A stretch of DNA of 63,486 nucleotides, counting the filler. It is 4 parts of 4 records of this genome, joined end to end, with 100 filler letters (N's around TTAATTAATTAA, not from the genome) between each part and the next. Parts side by side here need not be neighbours in the genome. Positions count along the whole stretch, not along the records: positions 1 to 30,073 come from SRR20825019_1842; 3 more parts are not named here. One strand, 5' to 3'. Under the pieces are notes generated by a model, which saw nothing but the letters and a program-made list of their open reading frames with translations, had not been told where the DNA came from and ran no database searches. This document shows, piece by piece, positions 1-30,073 of the stretch (positions are counted from its first letter, which is position 1; each line of letters starts with the position of its first letter). Made by a program: the position numbers and the translations under genes.

Positions 1-79
1 GGTTGCTATTCTTGGCAACCGGTGCCGGGAACTATCTCTTCCATCCCAATCGGGGAGCTATTCAGTGTTTAGGGTTTGT

Positions 80-305
80 CCAGCCTGGCCCGGCCCCGGC
101 CGGCGCCGCGGGCGCTCGCCGTCCGGGCGCGGCCAGTCCGACTGCGGCCGGCCGGCCCGCTCGCTTGCCAACCCTGGATCGGCGAGCGACGGCTCGGTGG
201 ACCAGAAGTCGCCCGGCCCGCCGTTGACGCCCCCCGCGCCGGCTACGCGGCCCGGCCCCGGCCGCGCCCGCCCGCCCGTCCGGTCGGCCGGGCAGCCGAG
301 GCCCA
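80..305. promoter_or_regulatory. GC-rich island upstream of glyoxalase II
   Basis: Long runs of almost pure G/C (CCGG, GGCC, GCCG). Only spurious Pro/Gly/Ala/Arg ORFs. Ends ~60-115 bp before the ATGs at 367/421. Confidence 0.6.
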
Positions 306-366
306 CATGCATTTGGGGATGACGCCCATATAAAGTCAACTTGGGCTCTTTAACGAATCCGAGGTT

Positions 367-1568
367 ATGTTTGCGTGCATAAGGACTTTATCCAGGTCAT
401 TCTCCACCAGAAGCACAAAAATGAAAGTTTTGGAAGTCCCCGTTCTCTCTGACAACTACTCGTACCTTCTTGTTGGAAGTGATGGGACTGCTGCTTGTGG
501 TAAGTTGAACAGGTTTGCGCGATCCGATAGACTATGGCTTAGGTTCGCGCAGTGGATCCTGCTGAACCCGATAAGGTTTTGGCGGCTGCGAAGCAGAATG
601 GTCTAAAGTGAGTAGTTCTCTACTCTGGCTGCATTTCACCAGTACTGAATTCTGAACAGCCTGACTTATTTGCTGACCACTCACCATCATTGGGATCATG
701 CCGGCGGAAATGAAGAAATGGCTAAGGTATTGGGCTCTTCGCTTACAGTTGTTGGATGTGGAGAGAATGGAGAGGAGTCTCGCATCCCTGCTATCAACAA
801 GCTCGTTAAGGATAATGAAGTAGGTATCCTAAGGGTAGCGCAATGGGATGCTGACCCATAGCATGAAGGAGTTTAAGATTGGGTCCATGACTGTCAAGTG
901 TTTGTATACACCTTGCCACACTAGGGTACCGTCCATCAACAAAATCATAACTTGGTAACCTTACAAGCTTCGTCAGAACCACATCTTGTACTTTGTCACC
1001 GATAGTGACAGCGAAGATCCTGTGGTGTTTACTGGAGACACCTTGTTTATTGGCGGCTGTGGACGCTTTTTTGAAGGGAACGGGAAAGAGATGTTGACGA
1101 ACATGGATCGCATTGCGAAGCTTCCTCCGTGAGTTTACATGTCATTTTGTTGAGAAGGTGCTAAAGGGTCATTGTATAATCGATGAAGAAACACGATGGT
1201 ATATCCAGGCCACGAGTATACCGTTGCAAACTACAAATTTGCTGTATCAGTTGAGAAAGACAACGCCTCCTTGACTGTATGTTACAATTTGTACTTATAA
1301 TATGACTACTTCTGACTAGTGTACTAGCAAGCATATGCGGACGCCCAGGCTCAAAGAAAGGCAGACAAGCCCACCATCCCTTCAACAGGTACGCCATGGG
1401 TCCGCTGCTTCTCTTTTATTATACTGACATTGGAAATTTCCAGTGGGGAAGGAGCTGGCGACCAACCCGTTCATGAGGTGTAACGAGCCTTCGGTGCAGA
1501 ATATTTTGGGAATAGCAGATCCCGTAGTTGCTATGGACAAGCTGCGGGAAATGAAAAACAACTTCTGA
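367..1568 (+). CDS. Hydroxyacylglutathione hydrolase (glyoxalase II), multi-exon; alternative ATG at 421
   Basis: Spliced product has [58 protein letters not shown] and the LREMKNNF terminus. GT-AG introns include 500-552, 608-659 and 820-868. Confidence 0.93.
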
Positions 1569-1721
1569 GCTTGCACCGGAGTCCGGCCTTGCCGAGTCGC
1601 TGGCTGGAATAATAGCTTCTGAACTGAAACCAAAATAGATTGCCATTCGACTTTATATTTTGCGTGCACCATCTCTAGTATTTCCCACCTCGCTCCTCCT
1701 CTCAAGTGTCCGCTTACCTTT

Positions 1722-2076
1722 TTACTCTCCACTGACCCTGGTGCGATTGTGGCGGATCTTGGCACACTCCGGGCAATCCGTTTTCCCCTGTGGCATTGCC
1801 TCAAGTTATTCAGCCAGGGATCACCACATCACCCCGGAATATGGGTCAATAGGGATCCCTAGACCCAATGCACGCCGGTACTCGTGGATGGGAATGAAGA
1901 ACGCTTCGGACAGTTGCTTCTGCAGGTGGACTGCACCTGTCTAGTAAGCAGAATGCTTAGTAGGCACTGCGGCCTCCGGAATTGGCCAACGTACTGCTAG
2001 TGATGCGAGTAGGATTGTTTCTTACGCTGGGTCGCAAACTGGTTGCGGGATCTCCACTGCTGAGACCGTGCGGCAT
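1722..2076 (-). CDS. Small hypothetical spliced protein (~80 aa) with C-terminal CPEC motif
   Basis: Manual model with two short GT-AG introns gives MPHGLSSG...AVHLQKQLSEAFFIPIHEYRRALGLGIPIDPYSG/GKTDCPECAKIRHNRTRVSGE*. Start uncertain and no family recognised. Confidence 0.35.
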
Positions 2077-2269
2077 TCACGCAGTTCACTTGGCGATAAC
2101 ATCATGGAAAGTGCTGCAGTTAGAGTCTGACTCCAAAATAATCACAGCATTTACTCCGACGGTCATCATTCCAAAACCATGGGCAAAACATCGTCGACGC
2201 CGGTGTCGGCGATCGGCCCGGACGTGGATCGATCACTCCTCGGCCCATGCGACGCACGGATGAGAATCG

Positions 2270-2480
2270 GTGCGGGGTGTGTGCTGCCCTCCCGACAAGA
2301 TGGGGGGCGAGCGGTCACGGCCCGACGCAGCCGGGTCTCACGTCCCCGTTGATCCCTAATCGCAGGACTGCCCTGTGATGACTTGCGGAGGCCAGCGGGG
2401 TGCAACGAGGCCCGCCACTGGCCGCCGCGGCGGGCCGCCGGGCGGCCTGACCGGGTCCAGCCGGAATGGGTCTGGTGGGG
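2270..2480. promoter_or_regulatory. GC-rich island at divergent junction (weaker)
   Basis: GC-rich patch (ggccgccgcggcgggccgccgggcggcc) between the minus-strand small gene and the kinase start. Confidence 0.45.
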
Positions 2481-2567
2481 CGGATCAACGGCCAGTAAAC
2501 ATGCGCAAGACTCACTGTTGAAGTAAGTATCTTGTGCCAACATGGTAGCCCCCTTGAGGACGCTACG

Positions 2568-4912
2568 ATGGCGTCTGACGATTCGAAGTCTATTCGGGCG
2601 GGGGACTCGCCTTCTTCACCAGACACCTCAAAGATGGAAAAGGACTTGGTCAACAGAGTCGCTGAGTTTCTGCGATCCAATACTGTCGATACACCAGATG
2701 GAAACATCGATACAGATGCATTGCTTCAGTCACTCGGGGATGTCCAGGGTGCCCGCTTGGAAGGTAGCGTGGACGTTGGCCGAGAATAATTTTGAAAATT
2801 AATTCTTCTCCAGAGCTATTGCTTCAAGCTATGGAACTTGTTGGAAGTATCCCTCCACCACCCGAAGGCGATAAGGAAGTTGATGTAAGTGAGGCCGAAG
2901 TTGCTGCAGCAGGGCTAGGGGAAGGCTCAATATTGAAGGACCCTCTTATCACCGGTATGCGCGCACCAGTTGTAGGGCTTGTCTGCCTAAGTTAACCCTG
3001 CCGAGTAGACTTGATTAAGCAAGCTGTAAAGAGCGAAGCTAGTGGTGATTCTGTAGGAAGGGATTCCGACCTATCTGTTGAAGACAAGGCGGATGGGCAG
3101 GGTGCGACTGAGGGAAAAGTGGAGAAGTCAGGGGAGCAACAGCAGGTCCAGGGTGAGGAGCCTGATGGTGCAGACAAGAACGTCGATGACGACGATGATG
3201 ACGACGATGACGATGACGACTATGACGACGAGGAATTTACTGAAGACGAATGGTCCGATGACGAAGACGTGGGCTATCGTAGGGTGATTCCCACCTATGA
3301 GGGTATCTTGAACGATAATCCAGAAGAGATGGAGGAGCTAGCTGCGTTTGATTTGATGTATCAGAATGGGGTAACCTTGCACTGGCTTAGTTGGTGTCTT
3401 GTGGCTGACTGCAGTTGTAGGAATTGGACCAGCTTCTCACTTATCCAGTGCACAATGAAAATATGAAGCGCAAGGCAGCGGAGCGGAAGGCATCGGATGG
3501 GTGTGGTAGTAATTCCGTACTTCTGGGATGGGGACTCATTCGATTTTGCAGAGAGATATTGACTTCACCACCAACAAGAACAGAGCCTCGTATGTCGCTT
3601 TCGGAAATGGATCCTGCCGCTGTCGCGGAGAAAAAGGGCGATGCAGTCGAGGCAAGCGACTCTGCGGCGACCGTCCCCACGCAGTCGCTTGAGCAGGTCT
3701 ATGAGTCATTCAACTTGAAAATCGTATACCAAGGAGGGCGTACTGGTTTTGAAGAGTCGAAGGACTATCCCATTAAGATTAACTCTGTGATAGCCGGTCG
3801 ATATCGTATTCTAGAATATCTTGGTTCTGCTGCATTCAGCAAGGCTATCCAGTGCCTTGATATGGAAACCAATCAGCTGGTATGACGCATGGTGTAGTAA
3901 TTTCCATGTTGGTTGACATCCTTGCAGGTTTGCATTAAAATCATCAAGAATAACAAGGATTTCTTTGATCAAAGTCTGGACGAGATCAAGTTGCTGAAGT
4001 ATCTTGGCGCAAATGATCCCAACGACGACAAACATGTCCTTAAAATGTTTGGTAGGTAGAAGGTCGAGTGTATGCAGAGATGACTGAAAGGTGGTGTGTG
4101 CAATGTTAGACTTCTTTTACCACAAGGAGCACCTGTTCATTGTCTGTGAACTGCTTCGAGACAATCTATACGAATTCTCAAAGTTCAATAGAGAATCGGG
4201 TGCTGAAAATTACTTCAATATTCCACGACTACAGAAAATTACAAAGCAAATCCTGACCGCGCTGGAGTTTGTACATGGGCTTAATCTCATCCACAGCGAT
4301 CTCAAACCCGAGAATGTACTTATTAAGAGCTACTCGAGGTGCGATTATGAAAGTTGTGTCTATTCTCGTAGCTGACCTTGGTATAGGTGTGAGGTGAAGC
4401 TGATTGACTTTGGGTCTTCCTGCTTTACGACAGACCATCTTAGTTCCTATGTTCAGTCGAGGTCTTATCGCGCGCCAGAAGTCATATTAGGACTCCCGTA
4501 CGATCAGAGGATTGATATCTGGTCGTTAGGATGCATATTGGCGGAGTTATTGACGGGGCTGGTGTTGTTCCAAAATGATTCTCTTCAGACGCTATTGTGC
4601 CGTGTGCAAAGCATTGTTGGGCCATTCGATGAAGAAATGCTCAAATGTGGCAGGTACGCTCATAAGTTCTTTAACAGCGATGGTATTGTCTATGAACAAG
4701 AGAAGGCGGATGATGGGACGTGCCGGTATGCCTTCCTAGCGCCCAAGATCACGACCCTTCGCCACAGACTGCACACTGATGACGAGGCCTTCCTGGATTT
4801 CTTGGGGTGTCTGCTGCAGAGCAATCCGAAAAAGAGGCCCACAGCAAAGGAAGCGCTCAAACATCGTTGGCTGACTCAGGTGACCTATGACGACAGCCCT
4901 GACGAAGAGTAA
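2568..4912 (+). CDS. DYRK-family kinase, DYRKP (plant-type) subfamily, multi-exon, long acidic N-terminus
   Basis: RTGFEESKDYPI..NSVIAGRY, YLGSAAFSKAIQC, NNKDFFDQSLDEIKLL, HSDLKPEN, KLIDFGSS, SYVQSRSYRAPEV. GSAAFS and RTGFEE are DYRKP hallmarks. Start approximate. Confidence 0.9.
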
Positions 4913-5082
4913 AATAAGAGCGCAAATGAAATGCACGAGTCAGTCCGATTTACTTTTGCAGAAAGCATAAAAAAATGTGCAACCGATGAAGCAGCCGCCT
5001 TCGCAAATATGCAGTACCTCATGCGCAATAGGCGCGGACAGCATGGAATGAAACTCACTAGGGTTCCCCAGCTGATGTGATC

Positions 5083-6360
5083 TCATTCAACCTCACCAAA
5101 ACCTTCATTTTGATTGATCATCGTGTCAATGATCGCAGACAGCTCATGGGCATCATCAGCATTTGATGTTCCCTCGTTATTGTGTGCATAGTCATCCATG
5201 GCTGATTGTAAGTCACCAAGCTCCAAGCCAGATGAGTTAAACGACCACTGCCGAGATGGCCCCGTCGGTGGACCACCGCCACCACGATACGAGTTCAGAA
5301 CCTTTAACACATCCGTGTTTGGGCTTGCCGGCACACCAGCGCTTTGCATGAGAGCGCCGAAAGGATCATGGTTGACATTATTCGACACGACTTGATCACT
5401 CGGTATAAATTCATCATCATCTTGAACCTCCTCAATAGATACGCTCGGCTTCTTTCCTGGCTTGCTCTCACTACTGTGTCGCCCGACAATGGTGGGAGCG
5501 GCCCGCTCCTCTGCTGTCCACTGTTCTGCATCTTCATTTAATTCCTGCAACCGTTCCTTCCTCCGCCTCTTATTTGTATCTGCACTGGAGTCTGCAACAC
5601 GCTTCTGGCTTGCCCGTTTGTGGGCCGAGGTCTGGCCATCCAAAGGTTGCCCTTTGCTATTGAACATGTTGGCAAAAAAGTTCATCATTCGGTCGACTGT
5701 TCCTTTCGTACTTGCGTGCTGCCTCTTCTGATCTGACATCTCGTTCACTAATTTGTGAATTGTATTCTGCATCTGCTCTTGCTCTTTGCGTAAACGAACA
5801 AGCTCCATGAACAAAATATTTTTGTCTCTCCGCAACTGTTCAACTTCTCCAGAACCCCCAGACCCAAAAGCCCCAACCTCAACTACATCGCGCCGCAGCT
5901 CGTCGTTCTTCTCACTGCTCGATCCTACCGGTTTCCGCTTCATATCCTTCAGCAACTCCGGCTCCCCTCGTTTGAAGTTCTCGTGCTGAAACTGCCAGTG
6001 ATCGGGGTCAGTTTTTCTAAAGCCATATGTATTCAGCTGCCTAACAAAGCTTGAAAAATTGTTGTGCTTGAAATAGAGTGGGAGCAAGTCCCGTCCGCAT
6101 TCCGCAGGCTTCCATACCGTAAAGCTCTTCCCGTCAGGCATCCAAGAAACAATATCATCAGTATTGGGGTCGCTAACTATGTCATACGCCTTCGTGAGAA
6201 AGGGGGGGACATAGTCCTGACGACGATTCGACCGTCCGTTCCCAGAAGATTGCTTGGCAGGAGGTTGCTGCAAGGGCTGACTGAAGGTGGGTTGTGGAAT
6301 GGCAGCATCAGGCATGTCCCAGTCTACATCAAGAAAGTCGGGAACCTTCACGCCCGCCAT
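5083..6360 (-). CDS. Heat shock transcription factor (intronless)
   Basis: HSF DNA-binding domain [11 protein letters not shown]...[20 protein letters not shown] followed by HR-A/B heptads (VEVGAFG...[23 protein letters not shown]). Confidence 0.95.
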
Positions 6361-6669
6361 GACGAAACACTACCTTCTTTAAATCATTCCGTCATAAATA
6401 AGTGTTGGCTTTATGAACTTCATCCAAACTGAGTGTCATTGCTCTGGGTATGGTGTAACTACAACTAGCATGACGCCTCCGGTTGCTTTCCTCCACTACG
6501 GCACATGTGAGTAGCGGTGCGTTCGATAGAAGTTCTCCACAAGTGGAAACTTACAAGTGTGCCACCAGGGCTGGAGGACAGTGCCCTTCGAGAAACTTCG
6601 TCTCAGTATGACAGGCCCATACTACAATTGTGTCGTCCAACATGAGGGAATTGTCGGCCAGGCCATGAT

Positions 6670-7225
6670 GTCGCCACCCCCCCGCCTCCTGGCCTGCCCG
6701 CCCCCACCATCGTGGGAGCCCGGCCGCCGGGCCGGGGCCGCGGCGTGCCGTGCTATTATTGATGTGCCGCGGGCCGCGGGCTGCCCGCCCGGCGAGCTCG
6801 GAGCCGCCCGGGACCCACCAGGTCGGACGGCATTGCCTATGGTTGGGACGACGACGGATGAATGAACCAGGTAGCCCCCGAATGATCGTTAAGTCGAGAT
6901 TAATCCTTATTTTGTGACCGTCGGAGACCGTGAGTCCAGCGCGGTCTGGCCCGATTCCGGCCCCGCTGGCCATGTGGTGTGTCCCCACCCATCGGGGGCG
7001 CCCCGAAGGCCGGACCGGCGGGCTGCGGGCGGTGCGGGGCAGCGGGCCGGGGCCGAGTGCCCGCCGGGGCGGCCGCCCCCCGGGCCCGCGCCGGCCGGCA
7101 CGGCGGGCCGGACCGACCCCGGCTGCCGCCCCGGGGCCGGCCGCGCGGGGCCAGTCCCGGGGCCGGCCGCCGGCGCTGGCGACGCCCCGCTACTGGGGCA
7201 CGCGGGCCCCAGTGGTGGCGGCCTG
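6670..7225. promoter_or_regulatory. GC-rich island at HSF / oxygenase divergent junction
   Basis: Two near-pure G/C blocks (~6680-6820, ~6990-7210) between head-to-head genes. Confidence 0.6.
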
Positions 7226-7370
7226 TCTACAAAAAGTTGGAGTTCAGACCGGGTGTACGTGTGGTGCAAAAGATTGGCCGCACTGTGCTGTTTTTGATAG
7301 ATGGAAGTCTCACGCTCTGGCGTGAAGTAAACTCCAGCGCAACGACCGCAATCTTGCACGTCAATCACGT

Positions 7371-8156
7371 ATGGATATTTTGGATGCTTCGTGTCCATCT
7401 TTCGAGGTACTGGTGGATATCATAACCAGCGATGGCTTTTTGTGCCTCCCGATGTCTAGTCACTTTCAGCAAACCGTGCGAACGTGTCAGGATAGCGCCG
7501 ACGTGTGGTTTAAGAATGCAGAGAGACACGAGAAAGAGTGTACTCAGCATCTGTATGGCGAAGGTGGTTCCCTTGGCCTTGTCGGGTGGAATAGGCCCTC
7601 GCTGGCCAAGGAAGTATTTCGCGTTCGTGGCACGAGCACTCAAGCCGGCCTGACTCCAGTTCCATTCCACAAAGGCAAGGATGTATACACGGGGTTGGAC
7701 AGGTGTCTGAGATCACTGTTGGATGCTGTATTGAAGAAATCTGGTGGGCATACAAGTTGCTGCTCCAATGATCTATGCATTCCGGACTCTGATTTGTCGG
7801 ATGGTCAGTTGAGCAACTCGCCATTTGATATATTTTTCTATCATAACAAAGAGCCTTTAAGTGGGGATGAACGGGTTATTGACGACTTCAATTGCTCCGT
7901 GCACGTGGATCCCGGGTACCTTACTTGCGTACCCACATCCGCCTCGCCCGGTCTCACTACGGTAGTGCCTCAGGGTGACACGGTGTGCTCAGTGGAGATG
8001 GGCCTCGAACAGGCTTCGCATTTGGTAATTTTCGGAGGAAAAAGTTTGAGCGATATAACTGGCGGCAAAGTGCCTGCATGCATCCACTGGGTGCAGCGTA
8101 CTCCTGGCAAGGCGCGAGTATCTCTTGTCTATGAGTTGCGCCAGACATTGCTGTGA
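7371..8156 (+). CDS. 2-oxoglutarate/Fe(II)-dependent oxygenase-like protein
   Basis: HVDPG (HxD), distal H in ACIHWV, and RVSLVYELR (RxS) motif. Confidence 0.75.
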   Translation: MDILDASCPSFEVLVDIITSDGFLCLPMSSHFQQTVRTCQDSADVWFKNAERHEKECTQHLYGEGGSLGLVGWNRPSLAKEVFRVRGTSTQAGLTPVPFHKGKDVYTGLDRCLRSLLDAVLKKSGGHTSCCSNDLCIPDSDLSDGQLSNSPFDIFFYHNKEPLSGDERVIDDFNCSVHVDPGYLTCVPTSASPGLTTVVPQGDTVCSVEMGLEQASHLVIFGGKSLSDITGGKVPACIHWVQRTPGKARVSLVYELRQTLL

Positions 8157-8203
8157 TGTTCCTTTGCTGACCGGATATTTCGTCGAAATATATTTTATTG
8201 ATT

Positions 8204-10342
8204 TTACCACTGAAACGCGGATCTCAGTCTAAGGGCCGCAACTCCATGAGTGTTCCACTCAGATCGACTGATAAACATATCGATGCACCCTTCCATGTTG
8301 CTCATGATTGCCGCCCCACGCCAAGTGGTTGTGGACGGAGAGACCTTATGGTTCACAAGGACCTTGACAGTGGCATCGGCCTCCCCTTGGGGCAGACTTG
8401 TCTCCACCCTCCTCTCAATAGTGTCCTTCAGCCCGCGCATCTCTGCAGGACCGCCAGTCAGCAGAATGCAAGAAAACAACCGCTTCCGCACTTCTGGCCT
8501 CTCTGCATCACATCACATCATCAGATATTGGTACCCAGTAGCAATCCGTGTCCCTACCAATTTTCATTACGCTATCGACAACTGCCTTGTGCAGGGCAAT
8601 AAACCCTTCTTCAGGGGGTAACTCCTCCTCCATCGGAACTACATCTGGCGCGGCATCCGTCCCAGGAGCGCCTCCAGCCGCCAACTCTGCTTCTGCCTTG
8701 GCCTCCATTTGTTTCTTTTTGTTCTTCTCTTGCACCTGAGCCTCGCACCATAAGATCCCAACAGACATGCCCATCATTCAATTAACCAACCTCTTGAAAG
8801 AAATCGTCAGCCAAGTCATCGTAGTCTCCCAGTTCCTGAAACACTACAAACACAAGGTGGTCAGGCTCAAGCCCATATCGCCAGCGTACAAGACATACGA
8901 AGTTCAGGCTTGGCCCACAGCCTCGGATGAAAAAGGCCGAGGGTACAAAAGATTCTCTCTCCCCCAATCTTATAGAAATACGCATTGGCTTGATCCGTTC
9001 CAGGCGCGGTCAGTGCGAAGCGAAACTCAACAGAGTTCCCAATATTTTCCTACAGGTCAACTTAGAGTCAGGACTTGTCCAACATGAAAGGAGCAAGGCA
9101 CGAACCGAGCCCAGTTCACAGCATTCCTCCTTCATTTTCCTCAGAATCTGGACATCCTGATGGGTCATATCCCGAATTGGCAGCGGGGGCTGAACATCGG
9201 CAAGCAGGCGGAGTAAACACTGTTCCATATCCGATCCTCCATATGGCATCGTGAAGCGCGAGGCTGGGTTGCAGAATCCTTCATCAACACACGCAACAGA
9301 AGTTTTTTCGTGCCCGATGTCAACAACACACGCTGTGGATTGTCCGGCACCAAAGCAAGAACATACGGACTCCTGATAAACGCGAACAAGAGGAGCAAAC
9401 AGGTCAGATTCAACAAGGCGCGGGGTGTGAACGTGAGTACCAGATGAACTAGAACCTCCTTGAAGCCCATCTCGTTCAGGATTAGGTCGACAATCTCCTT
9501 CACATCCCGTCGGATGAAGTCGTCCGGAAGAGCCAGGACCACCGGTCGATCCTAACCGCACTGAAGTCAGGACTAAATACTCATGTCAACTAGGTTGCAA
9601 CGCACCTTGTAGTCCTTAGGGTTTAGCCCCATCTTATTCTTCAAGATATGGTTCAATATGGTGACCAGGTTCTCACGAAGGGCCATTATTGATAGTTTCG
9701 AGTTGACAGCAAGCCGCCCCTCCTTGATCGGCCAGACAACTTGGAATTTATCAGTGGGAAGAAGTTTGAAAACCTGTACGCACGCATCTAGCCATGAGAC
9801 GTGTTCCAGGCTCATATAAAGCCTAACCTACATCCTCTCCAACAAGGTAACCAGGAAGCTCCTCATTAGGATCTCGCCACCCGTATACCTCCTCAGGATC
9901 AGCCTTTCCTTCCATACGACCAAAGGACTCCTCCCCAAGTCCCTAGGTTGCGCTTGAGTGGTATGAAAATCTATGAATGAAGACTATCATACCTTCTTCC
10001 TTCCCTTTCCTCTTTTCTCAGATCTAATCCTGTTGTGTATTTGCTTCAGACCCTCAGATCTCATGGAACTGTAGTCAATCAAGTCCACCATTTCCTCGTC
10101 TTGCGTCTCATTCTGCGCACCTTCTTTGCACTTCCACGCAATACAGCAGGGTACTGCAGCAAGTGCAACGTGAGCTGCCAGCTATCTTGTCAAAAATTAA
10201 ACTCACCTTGGTGTGGCTCAAAGTCTGTAGAAAAACCAACTCGGAGAAAGAGAGAGCCAAAATTAATTACGACAGCCTTGTCTTTATGCTCGAAGTCCGA
10301 CGAAGCTGCACTTGATCCAGACTGGGAGTCAGCAGCGCTCAT
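8204..10342 (-). CDS. ARP8: Actin-related protein 8 (INO80 complex; plant ARP9-like), multi-exon
   Basis: VVINFGSLFLRVG, WPIKEGRL, ACVVDIGHEKTSVACVDEG, PYGGSD, ILLTGG, and the Arp8-type terminus WRGAAIM...EWNTHGVAALRLRSAFQW. Confidence 0.85.
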
Positions 10343-10499
10343 TCTCGTAGTGGTAAAAGTGCAAATTTGTGAGGCTGGAGTTTCACACTAATATTTTAGG
10401 CAGAGTGAGAGGGGAGAGGTGAGAGGCCTGATTCCAGGCTTGCGCAGCGGCGAGTCCTCGAGGATGGCGACGCATGGCCATTGGCCAAACGGGACGAAC

Positions 10500-10990: not shown

Positions 10991-11062
10991 GACTAAATAT
11001 GTGCAAAGTAGGATATGAATACAGAGGGGTGTTTGTAGAGCCGCCTTAGGTGAAGCCGTCTC

Positions 11063-19600: not shown

Positions 19601-20513
19601 GTTGCTGTGTGAATTCTCTAAGGCCTTCATAAGGAATTATCACATGTTTGATTTGTGTGCGCCCCGTGTTCTGCGCCACTACATCAACTCAGATGTCAAG
19701 GATACAGTGAAACAGGTTTACCATAGCATCAAGGGCATTGTTGACCAGCCCTGGAAGATTGAATTCACATCGCTTACCCAGGTAGGTTCTATTTTGTCAA
19801 ATGCTTCTTGGATTCGTTTTAATTGTAGGATTGCAGTTGTATGAGAGCATTGTGGATGCCCGCGCAAACAAAGAGAAGAAACTGGCCGAGAACTTGAAGA
19901 ATGATCTTATGCAGCTTTCCAAGGCAATGTCTAAGTTCTATTTCCAATATCAGAGCAAGGATGCCAGAGGACAGTCTCCTATCTCCAAATTGATTGCGAG
20001 GTCCCTTAGCTATGCTCTTTCCAAGGGCGAAAATTACCTCCTTTTCTTGGAGTATGCCATGACACCCTATGTCAAGCGTGTTAGCCAGCGTGATGCTTAC
20101 GAGCTTCGCAAAACTCTTCGGAACGAGTGGAGCGAAAAGATCGATGAGCTTTCCGGAAATGCCGCTCTTGATGCATTCTTTGAGGAACTGGAGGCTCGTG
20201 CAAATGGTGGTGCACCCAGGCACGCTGACGTTGGCGAAGTTGAAGAAGAACCTGTTTCTCGCCGCCTGTCAATGAATGACGAGGCTGCTAGAACCGGCGA
20301 TGAGCCCGAAGAGGAAGAGGAGGAACGATCCCAGGAGCCAGATGAGGATGAGTTCCGCGAAGAGTTGGAGTAAGTTTTCTCTCGCCCTTGTTCGTGTGTA
20401 AGCGTTTGACCATGTGTGTTAGGGATAGCAACGATGGCGAGGGCAATTATGAACAGCCATCACAGGTCGACCCTGCCGTTTTGAATAACTCAAAGAGACC
20501 TCGTAGAAGATAG
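16697..20513 (+). CDS. SCC3: Cohesin subunit SCC3/STAG (stromalin), multi-exon
   Basis: STAG domain (STSRLRPLRLAST) and SCD motif VHRYRDVDEKVR...YTKYVGWTLFD..VR...FIDRFTERIVSM..D. Short introns near 16844, 19782 and 20370. Confidence 0.92.
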
Positions 20514-20576
20514 TTATGTATAAAATCACAGAATAGCACCTGGCTAGTCGCTTTCGCCGCCACCACCTGCCTCCTA

Positions 20577-21672
20577 CTAGTTGACCCCTTCAGATTTTTG
20601 TCCATCACCGGCGTTGGTTGGAACAGTTAGCTTCGCTCCAACAGACTCGAGCAAGTCAACAATTATGGGGTCCCCTCCAGAACGAATGATCTCCTTGAGA
20701 GGAGTCCATCCAACATCATCAACAATATTGGGCTGAAGGCCCTCACACCCCACCAAGAACTCAACGATATCTGCGTGTTTCTGATAGCAAGCAACATGAA
20801 GGATTGTCTTCCCCCCTTGCTTCTTCAGGTTGACATCAGCCCCTTCTTGTATGAGAAGTTTCAATATGGTCAGGTTGCCCCGGAAGCAGCAATAGTGTGG
20901 GGCAGTCCACCCACTGTTGTCTTGGTGGTTCGGATCCGAACCATTCGCAATCAAGAATTTTACAACCAGGTCTCGCTCAAGTTCGCATGCCCATTGCAAC
21001 GCGGTCCGACCATTCTTGGCTACAAGGTTCACGTCGGCTCCTCTTTCCACAAGAATTTGCACCATGTGGTCCTGGCTAAATACTGAAAAATCAACCCTGG
21101 CATTAGAGAGGATACCTTCACACACACAAAATGCAACATACAGCAAGCCCACATGAGCGCGGTCAAGCCAGCATTGTTTTGAAGATTTGGATCTGTTCCT
21201 TCGTCTAGCAATCTCTCTGCAACCTCGGGATGGCCGTTGCAAGCTGCAATCATCAAAGGAGTCCGGTCCTGGTCATCACGTAAGCGCATATTGGTACTCG
21301 TTTTCTGAAGATGATATTCCAAGGAAGAGATGTCTCCTGCACGAGCAGCATCATGAATGGTCGTATTTCTAGGATTGACCTGATATGCAAACAGGAGCAG
21401 TCAGATATCATTGCAGACCCATCAGGACCATCATACATCGACCGTCGAGTTTTCATGCTTCCTGTTAAGATACTACTGGGAAACTAAGTACCCGAGTCGT
21501 CATTACCCCATTTCGACACTTACTTCCTCCGCCAAGACTCCACCAAACAGAGCTTTAAAGTTCAATGGGTCCCTGCACTACATCAGAACCTGATACCTTT
21601 TTGCATCGTGCATACTTACGCCCTTCTCGAGGTTTTAGTGTTATCCTCAGGCTGACTCCTTCTAGTATTCAT
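20577..21672 (-). CDS. Ankyrin-repeat protein, multi-exon
   Basis: Repeats TIHDAARAG, RTPLMIAACNGH, LTALMWAC, GRTALQWAC, GWTAPHYCC, GKTILHVAC, GWTPLKE. Confidence 0.88.
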
Positions 21673-21829
21673 GCCACGTGCGGTTTGTCCCGACCGGGCA
21701 GTCTGCATTGAAGTTCTGCTCGTAGCCATACCTAAAAAATGGACTTCTTCGTTCCTCTAGTGTGTGTAGTTGATACATCGTTTTTATGTAGTGGCAATTG
21801 CTGTCTGTGTCGCAATGCCACAACATGTC

Positions 21830-22320
21830 GCAAGCGCCGCCTGCACGCCGGTCACAGGTCACTCGCCCCAGGGGTGGGCGGCGCCGGCGGTGTCGTTGTC
21901 ATGTTCACCGGACGCGCGGGCGCACCTCGCGCTGCCGCGGCGCCAGGGCCCCGCTCTCGAGCTGGGGCCGGGTGCGGGCGCGCGCCGCGGGCCCGGGGAC
22001 CTCAGTTTTAGTTGTCCCCGACTCGCCCTCCGCCTGCTCATGCCGTGATTGACCGAGAGCCCCCGGCCTGCCGCGTGCTGGCAGCGGCGTACCGGTCGGC
22101 GCGGCCGGCGCGGCCACCGGCCGGGGGGCGGACCCCCCGGGGCGATCAGCCCCGGCGCCCTCGGGCTCCCCCCGGGCCGGGCCCGGCCGCGAGCCGCCCC
22201 CGCGGAGCGGCGCCGCGGCGGCCCGCCCCGCACCCTCCCCACGCAGTCCGGCTGGTCACTGGCAGCGCCGGGGCCGCGCACTGGCAGCGCCGGGGCCGCG
22301 CACGCCGGTGATGAACCGCT
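21830..22320. promoter_or_regulatory. GC-rich island upstream of ankyrin gene, containing a 22-bp tandem duplication (22257-22303)
   Basis: Near-pure G/C. CACTGGCAGCGCCGGGGCCGCG occurs twice in tandem. Confidence 0.6.
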
Positions 22321-22369
22321 AGCCACCAGGCACCCTGTTGACACTTGTACCTCCTTTCCACATGAATCT

Positions 22370-23660
22370 TTTTAAAAGGTGAAACCTCGTTATAGCGATT
22401 GGGACAGGAATCTTGAGCTGATGTCCGCTGAGAAGTTGACAGAATCACGTGCTCTATAAACTGATGTCCGCTGCGGGGTTGACAGAATCACATGCTCTGT
22501 ACTGTTGTGTTTCATTGGTACCTCATTTCAGTGAGTCAAACCCCCTCACGTACGGACAATTTGCAAGACGTCTTTCTTCTGAGTGTCCGCCCTACTGATT
22601 CATGATTTCAGTTTGGTCACTGCATCTGAAGCGCTCTTTAAGACGTCTTGTTTATCTTTAGATTAGGCGGACAATGCTAAGTCATGTGACAGACTGGGCG
22701 GACACAATGCTAGTCCGTGACGTGTTGATCATGTCATGACCAAATGATGTCTACGTCATGTGACATGACGTCGCCGTCGTCGGGGTTATCTCTCATTCGG
22801 GCGGACACCACTTTCATGAACAGTTGGCTCTGCCGCCAGCATCGCGAATCGGCAGGGGGTGCTGATGATTGCCAATGATTGCTCATCACTGATCATCACT
22901 GAGAGGTGGCCACTCCCCATCCGTGTCAAGCAGGGGGAGCTCATCAGTCGCCATGCCATCTCGTAACCTCAACCTCCAACTGGGCCACTCAAACTCAAAC
23001 GGGACAGGCTCAACTGGCCCAAATATACATCTATGTTTCCCGAAAAAAGAAGTAAATAATAGAAGCAGAGACGCCAGAAGCATAAGATGACCTGCCCCGC
23101 AGAAATAATCGCATCAGCGTGGCAGAAGGCCCCCGCTCGGAAACGCGTTCCTGAAAATAATGGCTTCGAGAACGAGGATGGGATACGCCTGCAGATAGTA
23201 TCACAGGCGTTCCAAGAGGCGTTGAAAAAGCCACCTACCCGGAAACGCACGCAGGAAAATGGTGATTTCACCAATGAAGATGGGAAAGAATATTTATCGT
23301 TGTTGATAGGAAGCACTTCACCTACACAGTGCACAACCCAAAAAAATTGTGTGGCGGCACCATTGATCGTGAATGCACTTGCTAGGTTGGATAGCTCTCA
23401 AATTGTAGGCAATATTACAGTTGAATATGACATGGACTTGGCCTCGGATATGGAAGAAGGTTGAAGAGTCTACGATTAGTAGGCAGGAACGAATAGTCGA
23501 GAGAAAGTTTCATATCTGGAACAGTTGCAGATTGAAAGAGTAGCGTGGGTGACCGGCACTCCAACATGGCAACAAAACTGCGGGTCAACCCCCTCTAGTC
23601 TAATACTATATTCATGATAGTAAATAGTGAAGCTCCTAAACACGTTATTTCTAGCAGGAC
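22370..23660. mobile_element. Possible degenerate DNA-transposon relic / inserted segment
   Basis: Lower GC. GTGAAACCTCGTTATAGCGA (22379-22398) resembles pogo/Tigger-type termini. Clustered GCGGACA motifs and only broken ORFs. No transposase or partner TIR seen. Confidence 0.3.
22418..22498. repeat. Imperfect 38-bp direct repeat (2 copies)
   Basis: ctgatgtccgctg-NNNN-gttgacagaatcacRtgctct at 22418-22455 and 22461-22498 (34/38 identical). Confidence 0.85.
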
Positions 23661-23684
23661 CAGTCATTGAATAATGCTAGAGCT

Positions 23685-24185
23685 TTAAGCCGTTTTCCGT
23701 TTGAAGAGCACTCGTTTTGCGGATGTTCCCAAAAGCGTGAACCCTGTAGGTATCGCTATAGCCCACTTGATGGACGCAAACGTAGATGCTACCATTATAG
23801 ATCCCCACCCAGCACTTGTCATGTCAGGAAGCATACTGTAGTGAACATAATTTTCAATTATGTCACAAGCACCAGCGGTGAGCGAGAGGCTGCAAAGGAC
23901 AGCACAGAGTGCGCTTCTGGTTTCCCCAAACAGTCGAATACTCCATGTAACAAACATTAGTGAGTACAGAACAGGATGGCACCAATAGTCGACAAGGAAA
24001 TGGTCGGTGAATCTCGAATACTCGCTAGGCCCCCAGTTCGATACAACGTCAAGAAACCGAGCCTTTGTAAACGCAGTTTGAATACCGATAATGTCCCTCT
24101 CCATGCCCCCTAACGTCATAATAATCCAGCCCTGTGAGGTACAAGCAGCTAGGAAAAAGAAGGGGAATAACTTTCCGAGGGTCAT
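23685..24185 (-). CDS. Intronless small multi-pass membrane protein of unknown function
   Basis: ~166 aa ORF with about four hydrophobic segments, plus QTAFT...W...HFLVDY and ACDIIEN motifs. Confidence 0.7.
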   Translation of the reverse strand: MTLGKLFPFFFLAACTSQGWIIMTLGGMERDIIGIQTAFTKARFLDVVSNWGPSEYSRFTDHFLVDYWCHPVLYSLMFVTWSIRLFGETRSALCAVLCSLSLTAGACDIIENYVHYSMLPDMTSAGWGSIMVASTFASIKWAIAIPTGFTLLGTSAKRVLFKRKTA

Positions 24186-24399
24186 TTCCAGAAGATCTGA
24201 CACTCTATTTGGATTGTCGACAACGTACCCTTATTTAACGTGGAAGCACTGTTCCGCCACCCCTTCCGGTGCCTGGGTTCAACTGCCTCTTCCTCTGCTT
24301 GCTTTCGGCCGGCCGGCTGCAACAGCCATCCCTTTGTTTTTAAACTCCTGTTTGGGGCTATGACCCGTGCAACTTGCCTTGTCGACTCTAGGTCAGACT

Positions 24400-25545
24400 A
24401 CCGGACGCGGGCCGAGTCCCCCGCCGGCCTAACTTCATCCGGGCGCGGTCCCCGTCAGCAGTGTTTGCGCAGCCGCCGTCCGGTCCCAAGGCGCGTGCCG
24501 GGCGCCCAAGGGTGCCAAACGCGGCCCGGCCGGCAAGACTCCCGGCGACGCAGCATGGCCTACTCAGATGCATTTTCGCCCCCCCGGATCGCCGCCGGCC
24601 CCGGCCCGCCGACCGGCGGCGGTCCCCGGGCCGGGCCAGCCGCAGCCCCGGCTCGCTGCTCCCAGCCCAACCACCAGCACTCCGAAGTCGGTGGCCCGGG
24701 CGCGGCACGCCGAGGAACCGCAAGTCAGTGGCGGGCCCCGTGATGGCGAGCATCTGCCGGCGGCGGCCCCCGCCGCCGAGGGGCGGGGTGCACTACGGCA
24801 GCCGCGTGGGGACCGGGCGGAGCGGCGTCCTGAGGCATTCTTGAGAGTCAGCCCCGCTCGCCGACACTCAGTCCGACCGCGGGCCGGGGCTTGAGAGTCC
24901 GATCGGCCGGGTCCGCGCCGCCGCGCCACATCCGGGAAAGTGCTCAGTGATCAAGCCCTCGCTCAGCCGCGGCCCAATGTTACGTGACCATCCTCGAGCC
25001 TTTCCATGAATTGGCGGGAGTTTATGCTCATCGATGGAAGTAAGTTCCCAAAATAGGTCGATCCTTGCCAATGTAAGGACAGGATACATGGCTAGGGATA
25101 GACTCTTTGGACGGGATACGTCTGATTTTTTGTTTCCTTCCCAAAAAATTCGACTCACATGTTCACCAAGAATCCCGAAAAATTCCATCGTTAGTCTACA
25201 CTGTGGGCTGCACTAAACCGACGGAAAGAAGAAGCGACGGTGCCGCGAAGGCCGGGCCGAGATACTTACACCAAAATTGAATTGCCCTAGATCCGCTCAC
25301 CGGATTTTTCGTGTTAGACCAGCAGAGATTGGGCGCGGGTGACCCTGCCAAACATCATCGGGAGCAGTTTGACCAGTTTAGGGCTGCGTTTCGACGGGGC
25401 GTGTTTGTTGGCGGGCCACGGGCCGCGCGGCCGGAGGCCGCTCAGCGGCCTTCTGAGATGCGTGAGCAGTGACAAGCGGCGGCTCCTGAACGCCGGTGAG
25501 CCCCCCCCGCCCCCGCCCGCCGGTCCCGTGCGGGCGATTCCGCTC
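24400..25545. promoter_or_regulatory. GC-rich islands (24400-24975 and 25400-25545) at membrane-protein / CCT divergent junction
   Basis: G/C-rich blocks between head-to-head genes. Confidence 0.55.
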
Positions 25546-25865
25546 AGCTCAAGCCGTCCACCGAAAACGATTTGTGGAATTCCTCCATGAAAGGATTCTT
25601 CCTGCGACGCACCATGTGCAAGGTGGATCCACCCGCAGATTTTTCTTCCAACCTCGGCCTGGAAGCGTTTGAGGTCATAGCAGTGGGCTGCTCCGATATC
25701 TCCTCGGCTTGCTGGCACCTTTGAGAAGGCATCACAAGCGCCAAGGACAAGTATTACAATATAGCAGCTCCCTCTTCAGTAAACACTTCATATTTATTTT
25801 CCTGCAGGATTTTTGCTATCTCTTCCGTCTTGATTTTAAGTAGTCAGTAGACTTGGAAGTTGGAT

Positions 25866-27297
25866 ATGGGTCCTGGAAGTGATTTAGCCGTGGACACGCA
25901 TAGCCCTGTGATATTTTCAAAACCCGTAGCAAGTGCCGGGCTGCGAACGACATCCTTTGACGAGAGCAGGAGGAAGTTGGATGCCCTTGTCAACGTAGCT
26001 GTTGTGGAGGAATATGAAAACAGAATGCAGCCAGTGGGTTGCCAGGTCGGTATTTACGTCCCTTGAATGGTTGACGCGTTGCTTACACCTTGTTCGATAG
26101 TCTCCTATGGATAACCGCGGTATGACCACCGCGCACTCCGGGAGTCGCCGCATTCAACCCTCCAAATTTGGTGGGCTCCCCCCTCGTACCCCTACGCCTA
26201 CACAAAGCCGGTTAGCAATGGATCCTATGAAAGCCAAGGTTCAATGCGCCGAAAGTAAGGCCGAGGCCAATCCTTTGAGAAGTAGTTTAGATATGATGGT
26301 GGTTGATAAGACTACTGGTGCGCCTGTCGAGTCGCCGGTAGAGGGGGGTGGGAGGACTTGCAACTTGTCTTGCGGCACGACGACACCGCCCCCCAAGTCT
26401 TTCGTACCTATTTGCTCTCCCATGAAAACCGAGGTTCCTGTTGTTGTCCCGAAGCCTAGCCAGCACGTGGTGCCCAAGCCTGTCCAAGCGTCAAGGTGGA
26501 CTATGTATGGACTGAACATGATGTCGCCGGTGTCTGGTGGGTCAGCGTCGGGGTTAGGGCTATCGGTGACTCCTCAGCCTGTGAATCGGAGGACGGAGTC
26601 ATCTCCAGGGGCATATGTGATGACTCCTATTCTTGATGCACAGCCATCCCCCTTTGGGCAGCAGCAGAGGGCCTTTTCGCAAGGCACTCCTAGAGTGACT
26701 GTGCCCTCGCCAACTGTGGATCTAACTGGATTGAGATGCCCTTCGCCCAGTCCCGTCGATTTGAGGTCTCCTTCTCCCAGCCAGGCCGCTTTTCTAAGCA
26801 TTGGTCATGCCGCTGCAGTTTCGGCAGCCACAAATGCATTAGACCAATTCCGCTCTGCGTTTCAGAGCGGCAAGCGGCTAAACATCCCCGCTGTTGTTCG
26901 TGCATCCACGCCAGTTCATATGGCGCCAAGCGCACCGTCACCATGCCAGTCACCAATGCCTGGTGGGGCGTCGTCCCCTGGCCCTTTCGCTAGTGCAGGT
27001 GCTTCTGGCATGGTGACCATGGCGCCAGTCGTACAAAGAGGTGGCGACAGGCAACTGAAGGTTCAGAAGTACTTGGCGAAGCGCCGCCAGCTGGCGCAGG
27101 TGAACCAGGCAAAGAAGCCCGAGAGAACTATCTCCAAGGTACGAAAGACAATTGCTCAGAGCCGACCAAGGTCAGGGGGGCGTTTTATTACCACCCCTGA
27201 CCCTGTGACATATTTCAAGCCAATTGATGACTCCCCAACCCCGATGGATGATCGGGACATTCCGGTATCCCAGCAGAACAGGCCGCAGAGCGTGTGA
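25866..27297 (+). CDS. CCT-domain (CONSTANS/CO-like/TOC1) protein with Ser/Pro-rich N-terminus
   Basis: C-terminal RQLKVQKYLAKRRQ...ISKVRKTIAQSRPRSGGRFI matches the CCT pattern. Probable first exon 25866-26045 and intron 26046-26100, in frame with ORF 26107-27297. Confidence 0.75.
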
Positions 27298-27532
27298 AGT
27301 GCATAATTGGCATCTTCGTTGTTTTTTATGCCTTGGGCCACATAGATTGGAACACTACGGTGCAAACGCGCCGCCAGTTTCTATCGACATGGACAATGCA
27401 CAGAAATAGGATTTCTTTGCATATGAATTCCATGTTTATGATCTCAGTGACTTTCACTTCAGTTGCGTGTATCGCTTCTTCGTCTAACTGAGTGGAATAA
27501 AATCTTACTCAGTTTTGTTTTAATGTTTTCAT

Positions 27533-29040
27533 TTACTTGATGGATCCATTCTTCAGACTGCAGGTGCAGTTTCCTGCCTCGGTCTTGAATGGCGCATCCT
27601 TGTAATAGGCAACTCCATCGGCCTTGGTGTGAAGGTCAGGTTGCACAGCCTCGAAAATCTTTTTCTTAGGATTGAGCTGGGACTCTGGCTCTCCAGGATA
27701 ACCGTCGAAGGTGATACGTGCGCCGATAGGGGCACCCTCAGGGGGGCTCACGAGCTCCACACTGGAAGATAGAGCATTAGTTGCAACACAGTTCAACGCT
27801 CAACTCCGTCCATACACTGTGTGGTCGGCGTTGGATGCAGCCAGAACCATAGCCTCGGACCGGACTCCGCGCATATTTGCGGGCTTTAAGTTGCACAAAA
27901 CAACTACACGGCGGTTCTGCGGACCAGTCAACGGGAATTCCCCACATCAAACAGTGCAAGTCATACCTCCATCTGCTCAATAGGAATAAATTTCACCAAG
28001 CCAGAGCACACTGAGCGTGGCTTCTCCTCGCCAATGTCGATCTCCTCGCAATAGAGCGAGTCTGCTTCGGGATGCTTCCACACCTTCTTGATCTGACCAA
28101 CGCGAATATTCAATTTTGAGGCAGGATGGGCATCATCTGCTGCCGCCGCGGCGCCCTTTCCTCCCTTCTCCTTTTTCTCCTTGCCCTTCTTGTCGTCTCC
28201 CTTCTTCTCTTCTCCTTTCTTTTTGTCATCTAAAGTCTTCCGGTCAGCACAGGCGCCCCATCAGGACAACAGACACACACCTCCGCCTTTCTTCCCATCA
28301 GGCTTCTTCGCGTCTGCATCTGACAAATTGGTTGGTTCAGTTGCACGTGAGATACCTGGCCATAAACAAACCTTTTCCCTTCCCGGCCTTGGCAGCTTCT
28401 TTTTCAGCCTTGGCAGCCTGCTGGGCCTTCACATAGTCCTCTGGCACATATGTGTGCTTGATGTGGACCAAACCAAGCGCGCTAACCTTGCCGGCCACCG
28501 AAGGAAGCCTCTGAACATGAACAAGCCACCTGGTTACGGCGCATGCATAGAACTTCTGATAGTCACTGAAACGAGACTAGAAAGACGCCGTCAAGAAACA
28601 GATCAAAGACACCACATAGCAGCAATACATACCACAACAGGGTGCGCATGGGCAAAGCAAACGAGGTCAGCCGCAGTGAGACGGTGAGAAACGAGGTAGG
28701 TAAGGGGCAACAAGGAGTGGTTCAGCTTATCAATATCAAAGCGGTTGCAAAAGGTAAACCACTGGCTAACATCGGCTTTCTCAGCAGGGTTTGAACCCAT
28801 CAAGCTTTCGTTGTCGTGAAGCAAAGCCTGCGCAATAGCAAAAGTTCCAGTTATAGGCCCCTCCGCACTAACTAGAACAGGAGCGTCCGCCTAACGTGCA
28901 AGTCAGCTCAGGAATGCGGAACGTAGTGCCGAACATACATGGCCATCGTTGACAACCTTCGCCTTATCTCCACTTGCTGAGTTGAGAAGCAAGCACGCGT
29001 TCGAGGCGTCGGAACTGTTCACGTGAAGTGTCAAAGACAT
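27533..29040 (-). CDS. Arc1p/AIMP1-like aminoacyl-tRNA synthetase cofactor (GST-like N-domain + EMAPII tRNA-binding domain), multi-exon
   Basis: EKADVSQW...[13 protein letters not shown] (GST-C-like), Lys-rich linker, then [44 protein letters not shown] and [19 protein letters not shown]. Confidence 0.88.
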
Positions 29041-29299
29041 TTGGTATGTGAAGAATTTAATTTTTTTCCCAGTCCTCACATATAGCTGAAGATCAGGGGC
29101 TGTATCCGCCACGGGGGGCGGTATTGTTGGCGCTTGCTGCTGTCTCTGGCCATAGATCGCCCTCCTGACAGAGCGCGAGAGCCTAGCCGCATGGAGGGTA
29201 TTGTTGCCCTTCCGCGTGCTCCTTGATCCTAGGTGGGCACCGGTCGGGTGTTGTACCATCGACAGGAACGTCAACCGACCAACGAACGACACTGGCGTG

Positions 29300-30073
29300 G
29301 GTCCGGCCGCTGACCTGACAGCCCGGCGGCACCCCGACGTGGACACCCGGGCTCCTATCATCATCGTCCCTGCGTGGCGGCGCCCCGCGACTATCGTGCC
29401 GCCTGCTGGGCCGTGGCAACCGGACGGCCGGGGCTTGAGCCCCGGCCCGTGGGGACGATGACTGATGAGATGATTGCCCTGTCCGGAGGCCAGCCGCGGG
29501 CCGCCCGGGCTGTCCCCCACTGCCTGAATGCCCGTGGTGGTAGGGCACCCGCCCGCCGCCGGGCGGGGCCGCTCCGGGCCTGCCCCGGCGGCCGCGTGGC
29601 CTGCAGTCGGCGGCTGGCCTTGCAAGCCGCTCGCCGCGGCCGGGTCGTTGCCGGTGGGGCCCGGGCCGGGTGCCACTCGCCGCCGGGCAGGCGCGTGACC
29701 GCCCCGGCCGTAACCGGGGGGCCCGGCTGCCGGCCCGGCCGTCACTGGCCCGGGTGCCGCCTCGTGCGGACCGATGGAGTCGGCCGCCGCCGGGCCTTGC
29801 GGTGGCGCGGGCCGGCGGCCGCGTCGGCCGCCGGTCAGTGCGGCGGCCGCCGACGGCCGGGCCGGGTCCGGGCGGGGGGCCCGCGGCCTCGCATTGTTAC
29901 GGTACTGATGGGCGCGATCGCCCGGACTGCACAAAGTTGCCGTGCCCCTCCTCAAGTAGATTCGCAACGAGATCAATTCTGGCATTGTTGAAGGGGGCAG
30001 CCCCCGCGCATGGGCCGCGTCCCGGGCCGGCGCCGTCATGCGCCGTCGGGGCATCCCTGCCCCCCGCCCGCCC
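29300..30073. promoter_or_regulatory. GC-rich island upstream of Arc1-like gene (runs to contig end)
   Basis: Near-pure G/C. The contig breaks inside it. Confidence 0.6.

Follow-up and report, generated by a model that had tools for sequence, protein, structure and literature searches.

Non-coding GC-rich blocks lie between the promoters of head-to-head genes on a contig of protist origin

We analysed a window of 63,486 bases that consists of four contigs joined end to end, and our subject is the first of these, contig A (positions 1-30073), whose genes stand in head-to-head and tail-to-tail pairs and whose divergent junctions, about 0.8-0.9 kb wide, hold islands of very high G+C (GC) content. 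At either edge of each divergent junction stands a core promoter of the TATA type, followed by a very short 5' untranslated region (5'UTR), and one or two GC blocks lie in between; these blocks are non-coding, specific to head-to-head junctions and absent from the mature mRNAs with mapped 5' ends. Among the 12 supported genes between 2499 and 28890, the strand flips at all 11 junctions (five divergent, six convergent), a run with a chance of 2^-11 = 0.0005 in a region chosen post hoc. Islands are present at all five supported divergent junctions and at none of the six convergent ones; the chance of this split is 1/462 (about 0.002), in a region chosen because the pattern was visible. The four convergent spacers measured have 41.7% GC, and convergent spacers are the GC-poorest parts of the contig. 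A preliminary description, made from the letters alone, had reported both patterns. Its claim that islands occur at divergent and never at convergent junctions is borne out, and its alternating gene orientation holds for the supported genes, but two of the elements that it had counted, a second gene at about 1480-2380 and a "relic" at 22330-23054, have no support from Pfam, complementary DNA (cDNA) or coding score. For these two, a sequence-only intron scan was indecisive and the purine skew is weak (-0.026 and -0.054).

The blocks were called from the sliding GC content (a 200-nt profile) together with a 40-bp/77.5% segmentation, which gave 12 blocks at eight loci with a total of 3436 bp, or 11.4% of contig A. 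Their GC content is 75-86%, against 50.1% in the rest of the contig, and 60-nt rows reach 97% GC inside blocks while the adjoining edge rows drop to 42-48%. Block 1 in the GC segmentation (69-312, 81% GC) lies upstream of a metallo-beta-lactamase (MBL)-fold gene on the plus strand, and block 2 (2384-2475, 80% GC), a weak 92-bp core in a zone of 65-73% GC at 2200-2500, lies upstream of a DYRK-type kinase gene, also on the plus strand. The divergent junction of an HSF gene and a 2OG-oxygenase-like gene contains block 3a on the HSF side (6655-6832, 79% GC) and block 3b on the 2OG side (6932-7227, 85.5% GC), separated by 99 nt of ordinary composition. Block 4 (10532-10977, 81% GC) occupies the divergent junction of an actin-related protein (ARP) gene and a NagA-RCC1 gene, and block 5 (15990-16294, 76% GC) that of a nucleosome assembly protein (NAP) gene and a STAG gene. 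To the right of a minus-strand ankyrin-repeat gene lie blocks 6a (21834-22011, 79% GC) and 6b (22049-22327, 85% GC), 37 nt apart; block 7a (24390-24945, 76% GC) is followed, after 445 nt of about 50% GC, by block 7b (25391-25551, 75% GC), upstream of a plus-strand CCT-motif gene; and blocks 8a (29290-29903) and 8b (29986-30072), both of 80-82% GC, stand upstream of a minus-strand Arc1p/tRNA-binding gene, with the contig ending inside this eighth island. Block length ranges from 92 to 614 bp. All eight loci of the preliminary description are thus matched, although its island at 2270-2480 reduces to the weak 92-bp core and that at 24400-25545 resolves into two blocks, and its term "near-pure G/C" is right locally, in single 60-nt rows, but not for the averages.

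Sequence criteria for a CpG island are a length of at least 200 bp, a GC content of at least 50% and a ratio of observed to expected CpG (CpG o/e) of at least 0.6. All 12 blocks have at least 75% GC and a CpG o/e of 0.89-1.11, seven of the 12 are at least 200 bp long, and seven of the eight loci hold a block of that length, the exception being 2384-2475. Taken together, the islands have a CpG o/e of about 1.0, compared with 0.74 in introns (n=15), 0.77 in long exons, 0.83 in the non-island upstream flanks and 0.79 in the non-island background as a whole, and TpG/CpA stands at 1.2-1.36. There is thus a mild decay of CpG outside the islands which the islands have escaped. The label "CpG-island-like" used previously suits the islands themselves, while the depletion around them (0.74-0.83) is slight.

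The position of the transcript starts is indicated by two small public sequencing runs that carry contig A sequence, whose contigs were mapped over 6001-26000. These contigs skip segments of 47-59 nt that are bounded by GT..AG on plus-strand genes and by CT..AC on the minus-strand NAP gene (15 of 30 splice joints were listed), and several of them end in loose letters which we take to be the 3' part of a template-switch adaptor, marking cDNA 5' ends. From the splice joints and the adaptor tails we infer that both runs, whose kind is unrecorded, are cDNA. Eight of the 12 adaptor-tagged ends were listed. Two are internal (14512 and 19646) and six lie upstream of genes, at 6380 (HSF, minus strand), 7276 (2OG-like, plus), 15884 (NAP, minus), 16684 (STAG, plus), 23054 (plus) and 24072 (minus). 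The distances from these six ends to the nearest island edge are, in the same order, 275, 49, 106, 390, 727 and 318 nt, and none of the six listed ends falls inside an island, a count to be read with the possibility of truncated cDNA ends in mind. The depth of the cDNA-like contigs over the islands is little or none, which we do not use as evidence since GC-rich sequence drops out for technical reasons.

At four of the six gene-upstream ends, those of the HSF, NAP and STAG genes and of the gene that starts at 23054, an AT-rich 8-mer begins at -38 to -31. Neither of the two internal ends has one, and the background rate of such 8-mers is 2.7% of the positions of the contig. TATA-like words also stand just outside island edges that lack a mapped 5' end; one of these is CATATAAAG, which follows block 1 at a distance of about 20 nt. 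Because the starts lie outside the islands and are preceded by AT-rich boxes, the core promoters look TATA-like rather than GC-rich: they are conventional promoters at both edges of the divergent junction, with the island as the spacer between them. The preliminary description had these promoters as the opposite of the AT-rich type, which the boxes at -38 to -31 do not support. The first in-frame ATG follows the mapped end after 20 nt in the HSF gene (6360-6380), 10 nt in the NAP gene (15874-15884) and 13 nt in the STAG gene (16684-16697), and these would be the full lengths of the three 5'UTRs if the adaptor-tagged ends are the true starts. Vertebrate bidirectional promoters are described in PMC2670823 as those of divergent genes with transcription start sites less than 1 kb apart, and in both pairs with both ends mapped the starts on opposite strands are closer than this, at 896 bp for HSF/2OG (6380 and 7276) and 800 bp for NAP/STAG (15884 and 16684). 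The earlier reading of the islands as bidirectional promoters is therefore apt for the spacing of the starts but not for their place, with 0/6 inside islands.

These same data weigh on the idea that the islands are true CpG-island promoters of the vertebrate type, that is, unmethylated islands in a methylated genome within which transcription is initiated. A CpG o/e of 1.0 in the islands against 0.74-0.83 elsewhere, the excess of TpG/CpA, and the location of the islands at common 5' junctions less than 1 kb wide all speak for it. It founders on its central expectation, that of starts within islands: none of the six mapped gene-upstream ends is inside one, and TATA-like boxes are found at about -35. 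Moreover, the depletion of CpG outside the islands is mild, the principal signal is G+C (80% versus 50%) and not the retention of CpG, and the folding energy of any 5'UTR that crossed an island would be -0.5 to -0.74 kcal/mol per nt. We therefore regard this explanation as unlikely.

It is more improbable still that the islands are transcribed or translated parts of genes, such as GC-rich first exons, targeting peptides or long 5'UTRs. All six frames are indeed open through islands, as in the 389-codon open reading frame (ORF) at 28906-30072 on the minus strand, but high GC alone yields such frames. Three-base periodicity is absent in 12/12 blocks (z from -1.1 to +0.7), compared with z>2 in seven of nine coding controls; no ORF within an island has a Pfam match in a scan of 275 of the 303 contig A ORFs of at least 55 amino acids; and the ORF at 28906-29290 on the minus strand has a coding score of -21. 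The mapped 5' ends and the start codons lie downstream of the islands, with the HSF, 2OG and STAG ORFs starting well downstream and an in-frame stop ahead of those of HSF and 2OG. We thus rejected the islands as protein-coding exons for want of periodicity and Pfam matches and for their downstream start codons.

The islands are cryptically simple in sequence, with many short degenerate tandem repeats, and the words CCGG/GGCC are about 2.5 times as frequent in them as CGCG/GCGC. An exact 22-nt tandem duplication is present at 22257-22303, inside island 6. This common CCGG/GGCC-rich texture, the 256 weak matches between islands (compared with 66-134 in shuffles) and the contig ends in or near GC blocks, which suggest regions that are hard to assemble, are what might be expected of a dispersed repeat or transposon family, or of an assembly artefact of low-complexity, GC-rich reads. 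Yet the best alignment between islands scores 45.5 bits (72% over 110 nt), barely above the 28-41 bits obtained in 20 dinucleotide shuffles, no common ends or terminal repeats are seen, and all eight loci are at the same type of junction and have unique flanks. A dispersed repeat or transposable-element family was rejected on the alignment scores and the lack of common ends, the claim that the islands are not copies of one another was upheld, and the excess of weak matches is best read, from composition, as common texture and not homology. We consider a repeat or artefact very unlikely.

Two further candidates were tried and set aside. Structured non-coding RNA genes were rejected because Rfam gave no match at E <=0.1 over window positions 1-40758, the tRNA search found no tRNA, and folding, compared with that of dinucleotide shuffles, gave z-scores between -1.5 and +0.4 in eight of ten blocks (-0.7 to +0.4 in seven, with -1.5, -2.4 and -2.7 in the others). 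A link to G-quadruplexes or R-loops, the former raised in the preliminary description, was dropped, since the check returned just eight G-quadruplex motifs and the GC skew of the islands is only -0.10 to +0.14.

How such spacers come about is less clear, and we consider it evenly balanced whether the blocks are inter-promoter spacers whose composition stems from a GC-biased process of very short reach. The most likely such process would be short-tract repair or gene conversion with a GC bias, acting in open or marked chromatin upstream of promoters; replication slippage of CCGG/GGCC-type words would amplify its effect, and CpG in the islands would be spared the mild loss seen in transcribed DNA. 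The spacer would then hold the two promoters of a pair apart. We favour such a process because the DNA looks unconstrained, with no conserved sequence, variable length and a simple texture, and because only 5' junctions are affected. In keeping with a local process, the non-coding DNA of the contig is not GC-rich in general, as the introns show. Several points weigh against it. No 5'-to-3' gradient of GC at third codon positions (GC3) is seen in the six ORFs that adjoin islands, and AT-rich introns occur within 150 nt of an island: the 15 introns average 44% GC, those near islands range from 33 to 61%, and one of 36% sits 146 nt from an island edge. Conversion tracts of hundreds of bases should spill over into such sites, and therefore either the process is unusually short-range or the cause is another one. 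The mapped 5' ends may be truncated, so that longer isoforms starting in an island are possible, and the identity of the adaptor is presumed. Finally, the evidence comes from one 30-kb contig, and the island sequences rest on one data set.

Because GC does not spill over into nearby sites, a selected role for the islands, as insulator, factor platform or origin, stays alive. Under this alternative, the islands would be elements that fix nucleosomes or serve as a platform for factors that read CpG or GC, acting as insulators, suppressors of divergent non-coding transcription or replication origins, and their composition would be kept by selection and not by biased repair. The strict placement between divergent starts and the very sharp edges adjoining core promoters agree with it, and the lack of spill into synonymous sites and introns is easier to obtain through selection on a bounded element than through conversion tracts. 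A shared word in the junction regions, CCACCAG, also counts in its favour, being present in seven of eight with no equal in 100 shuffles. On the other hand, neither sequence nor structure is conserved among the islands, their lengths of 92-614 bp and slippage-like texture are those of unconstrained DNA, and the eight G-quadruplex motifs and the skew of -0.10 to +0.14 amount to no R-loop or G-quadruplex signature. We hold the selected element to be a somewhat doubtful explanation, though the main rival to the GC-biased process.

The 7-mer CCACCAG, counted on either strand, has junction sites at 404, 2472, 6562, 6815, 11159, 16378, 22323 and 24671, which are eight of its 12 occurrences in contig A, and in 100 local shuffles no such word ever reached seven regions. 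Picked post hoc, it is a candidate for a motif upstream of promoters. To the right of island 6, at 22437-22500, a word of about 20 nt with CACGTG/CACATG, TGACAGAATCAC[G/A]TGCTCT, occurs in two copies about 40 nt apart, possibly as a regulatory repeat.

Similar arrangements are known from other systems, and each resembles contig A only in part. As in vertebrate CpG-island bidirectional promoters, non-repetitive islands rich in GC and CpG are common to head-to-head genes with starts 800-896 bp apart, and CpG is undepleted inside the islands and depleted outside. Unlike those promoters, contig A has its starts outside the island, at TATA-like core promoters, and it also departs from vertebrates in its more extreme contrast (80% versus 50% GC), its background CpG o/e of 0.79 and its introns of about 50 nt. 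GC/CpG islands at bidirectional junctions are known as such, and contig A adds to this their presence in a compact protist, the position of the starts outside the island and the extreme contrast to the background.

Recombination hotspots at promoters and CpG islands, accompanied by GC-biased gene conversion, are described in species without PRDM9, namely in the dog (PMC4350167) and in placental mammals and others (PMC11161765). These hotspots offer a known route to locally raised GC that is linked to promoters, and they would explain why 5' but not 3' junctions are affected; such conversion would be expected to raise GC in adjacent synonymous sites and introns too, which is not seen in contig A. 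The island edges are also much sharper than the hotspot peaks that have been described.

In compact genomes of the yeast type, the regions between divergent genes are AT-rich and depleted of nucleosomes (compare PMC9481977). Contig A shares with these the compactness, the common 5' intergenic regions and the TATA-like elements about 30-40 nt upstream of starts, but the middle of its junctions is 75-86% GC instead of AT-rich, with the opposite intrinsic nucleosome preference. The divergent strand-switch regions of kinetoplastids, which separate long polycistronic arrays of intronless genes, are likewise special sequences at the place where transcription diverges; contig A differs from them in having a junction for each gene pair, cis-spliced introns and a TATA-like start for each gene.

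Common 5' regions in compact eukaryotes are usually described as AT-rich and nucleosome-free, and GC or CpG islands at promoters are regarded as a vertebrate feature that is weaker in some other large genomes. A keyword search of the literature turned up no account of islands like these in a protist, although searching by keyword can miss one. We put forward only tentatively the wider picture of an unsampled protist, with proteins at most about 66% identical to anything among 5.8 billion sequences, whose whole nuclear genome is laid out as alternating convergent pairs, with a non-transcribed island of 80-90% GC at each head-to-head junction and the starts outside it, the island being made by a self-reinforcing, very short-range GC-biased process in the chromatin upstream of promoters and serving as an insulator between the two promoters. 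If this picture is true, a CpG-island-like compartment would be on record for the first time in a compact microbial eukaryote, which would offer a natural setting for telling biased repair apart from selection in the formation of islands. If the pattern is genome-wide, the organism would offer a small, tractable system for the origin of islands (biased repair, slippage or selection) as well as for their role (insulation, nucleosome placement, hotspots or origins). Contig A also points to a protist lineage that has yet to be sequenced and whose DNA lay concealed in an assembly of bacteria.

The strands of the contig A genes are supported by Pfam matches to stop-to-stop ORFs, by cDNA joints and by coding scores from a codon model that was trained on genes of the contig itself. 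The leftmost gene with a Pfam match encodes the MBL-fold protein (334-1330, plus strand). It is followed by the plant-type DYRK kinase gene (2499-4912, plus; Pfam), with introns of about 50 nt, and by the single-exon HSF gene (5083-6380, minus; Pfam and cDNA), with its ATG at 6360 and its cDNA 5' end at 6380. The 2OG-Fe(II)-oxygenase-like gene (7276-8156, plus; Pfam and cDNA) has its cDNA 5' end at 7276 and its ATG at 7371, and its Pfam match is weak, at 22.5 bits against a cut-off of 23. The ARP gene (8207-10387, minus) is supported by Pfam and coding score. The ORF that fuses NagA (GlcNAc-6-P deacetylase) to RCC1 (11231-13720, plus; Pfam and cDNA) has two 3' introns and NagA homology from about 11336. 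Its NagA part and RCC1 repeats share one uninterrupted ORF of 605 codons, and none of the 120 matches listed carries both domains. The NAP gene (13771-15884, minus; Pfam and cDNA) has ten cDNA-supported introns, a 5' end at 15884 and an ATG at 15874, and cDNA joints place two tandem NAP domains on one transcript; its 49-nt intron at about 14837-14885 bridges a break in the reading frame, the unspliced frame being ended by a stop at 14715-14717. One cDNA contig at 13491-14076 runs from the 3' exons of the plus-strand NagA-RCC1 gene into the 3' end of the minus-strand NAP gene, and therefore these convergent transcripts abut or overlap at their 3' ends.

Farther to the right are the gene for the STAG/SCC3 cohesin subunit (16684-20487, plus; Pfam and cDNA), with three cDNA-supported introns, a 5' end at 16684 and an ATG at 16697, and the ankyrin-repeat gene (20577-21483, minus; Pfam). 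An expressed gene of unknown kind (23054-23627, plus; coding score and cDNA) has an ORF at 23063-23461 and a cDNA 5' end at 23054, and another gene of unknown kind, on the minus strand, is marked by its cDNA 5' end at 24072. The CCT-motif gene (25851-27297, plus) and the Arc1p-N/tRNA-binding, EMAP-like gene (27536-28890, minus) have both Pfam and coding-score support.

The domains encoded on contig A are interrupted by tiny GT..AG introns, of 47-59 nt in the cDNA joints, in line with the compact eukaryotic genome previously proposed. In-frame TGA codons split the kinase and ARP domains, and a reassignment of TGA was considered and rejected: the TGA in the kinase lies within a 48-nt GT..AG intron, and with introns of 47-59 nt confirmed by cDNA, the genetic code is therefore standard. 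The best match to the STAG protein is 27-29% identical to it; the NagA part is 44-45% identical, over the full alignment, to coral and metagenome proteins; and a DYRK exon is 62-66% identical to sequences from a Rhodelphis-labelled set, Guillardia, a haptophyte, green algae and plants. Judged by its genes, contig A is the nuclear DNA of a compact eukaryote, a hitherto unsampled protist whose placement is uncertain; its affinity is only vague and may be called Archaeplastida/Cryptista/Haptista-like. A comparison of the cDNA-like and genomic contigs over 6058-23377 lists 20 single-base differences, 13 of them transitions, which suggest a different strain or allele, or else errors at contig ends. 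A search with STAG and HSF for a related locus in genome and metagenome collections found none.

The other contigs of the window are B (30174-40758), C (40859-57015) and D (57116-63486), and the joints at 30074-30173, 40759-40858 and 57016-57115 each consist of 44 N, a 12-nt linker with stops in all frames and another 44 N, so that the window has six runs of 44 N in three pairs. Since the window is a concatenation, position 30073 is where a contig stops, with no biological boundary implied. On the right, contig A stops within a GC block, and on the left a block begins 68 nt from the contig end. This suggests that short-read assemblies break off at islands and that the lengths given for islands at contig ends are lower bounds.

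Contig B has an architecture opposite to that of contig A, with seven intronless eukaryote-type ORFs (HAD_SAK_1, asparaginase, MatE, MSP-domain, CRAL-TRIO and two of unknown kind), all on the plus strand and separated by spacers of 43-162 nt with 26-37% GC; none of its GC windows exceeds 68% GC, and it has no island. Its codon usage correlates with that of contig A at r = 0.34, compared with 0.60 within A and 0.62 within B, its TpA o/e is 0.85 against 0.61, and its stop codon is TAA in five of six cases, whereas TGA is used in five of seven in contig A. Because of these differences in codon usage, TpA and stop codons, contig B is probably no counter-example to the pattern of contig A but DNA of a second eukaryote within this assembly, one whose genes are laid out in a polycistron-like manner.

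Contigs C and D are bacterial, with genes that include a polysaccharide-export/glycosyltransferase cluster, a TsaB-like gene and PhoH. The nearest genome (G001) is 98-99% identical to the window over 40859-58999; it has no match to window bases 1-20000, and a search for the contig A locus in 201 genomes of its family likewise gave no match. Contigs C and D map about 2.9 Mb apart in G001, and the exopolysaccharide cluster of contig C comprises a tyrosine kinase of the Wzz/GNVR type, Poly_export, Bac_transf, glycosyltransferases GT1, GT2 and GT4, a DegT aminotransferase and a flippase.

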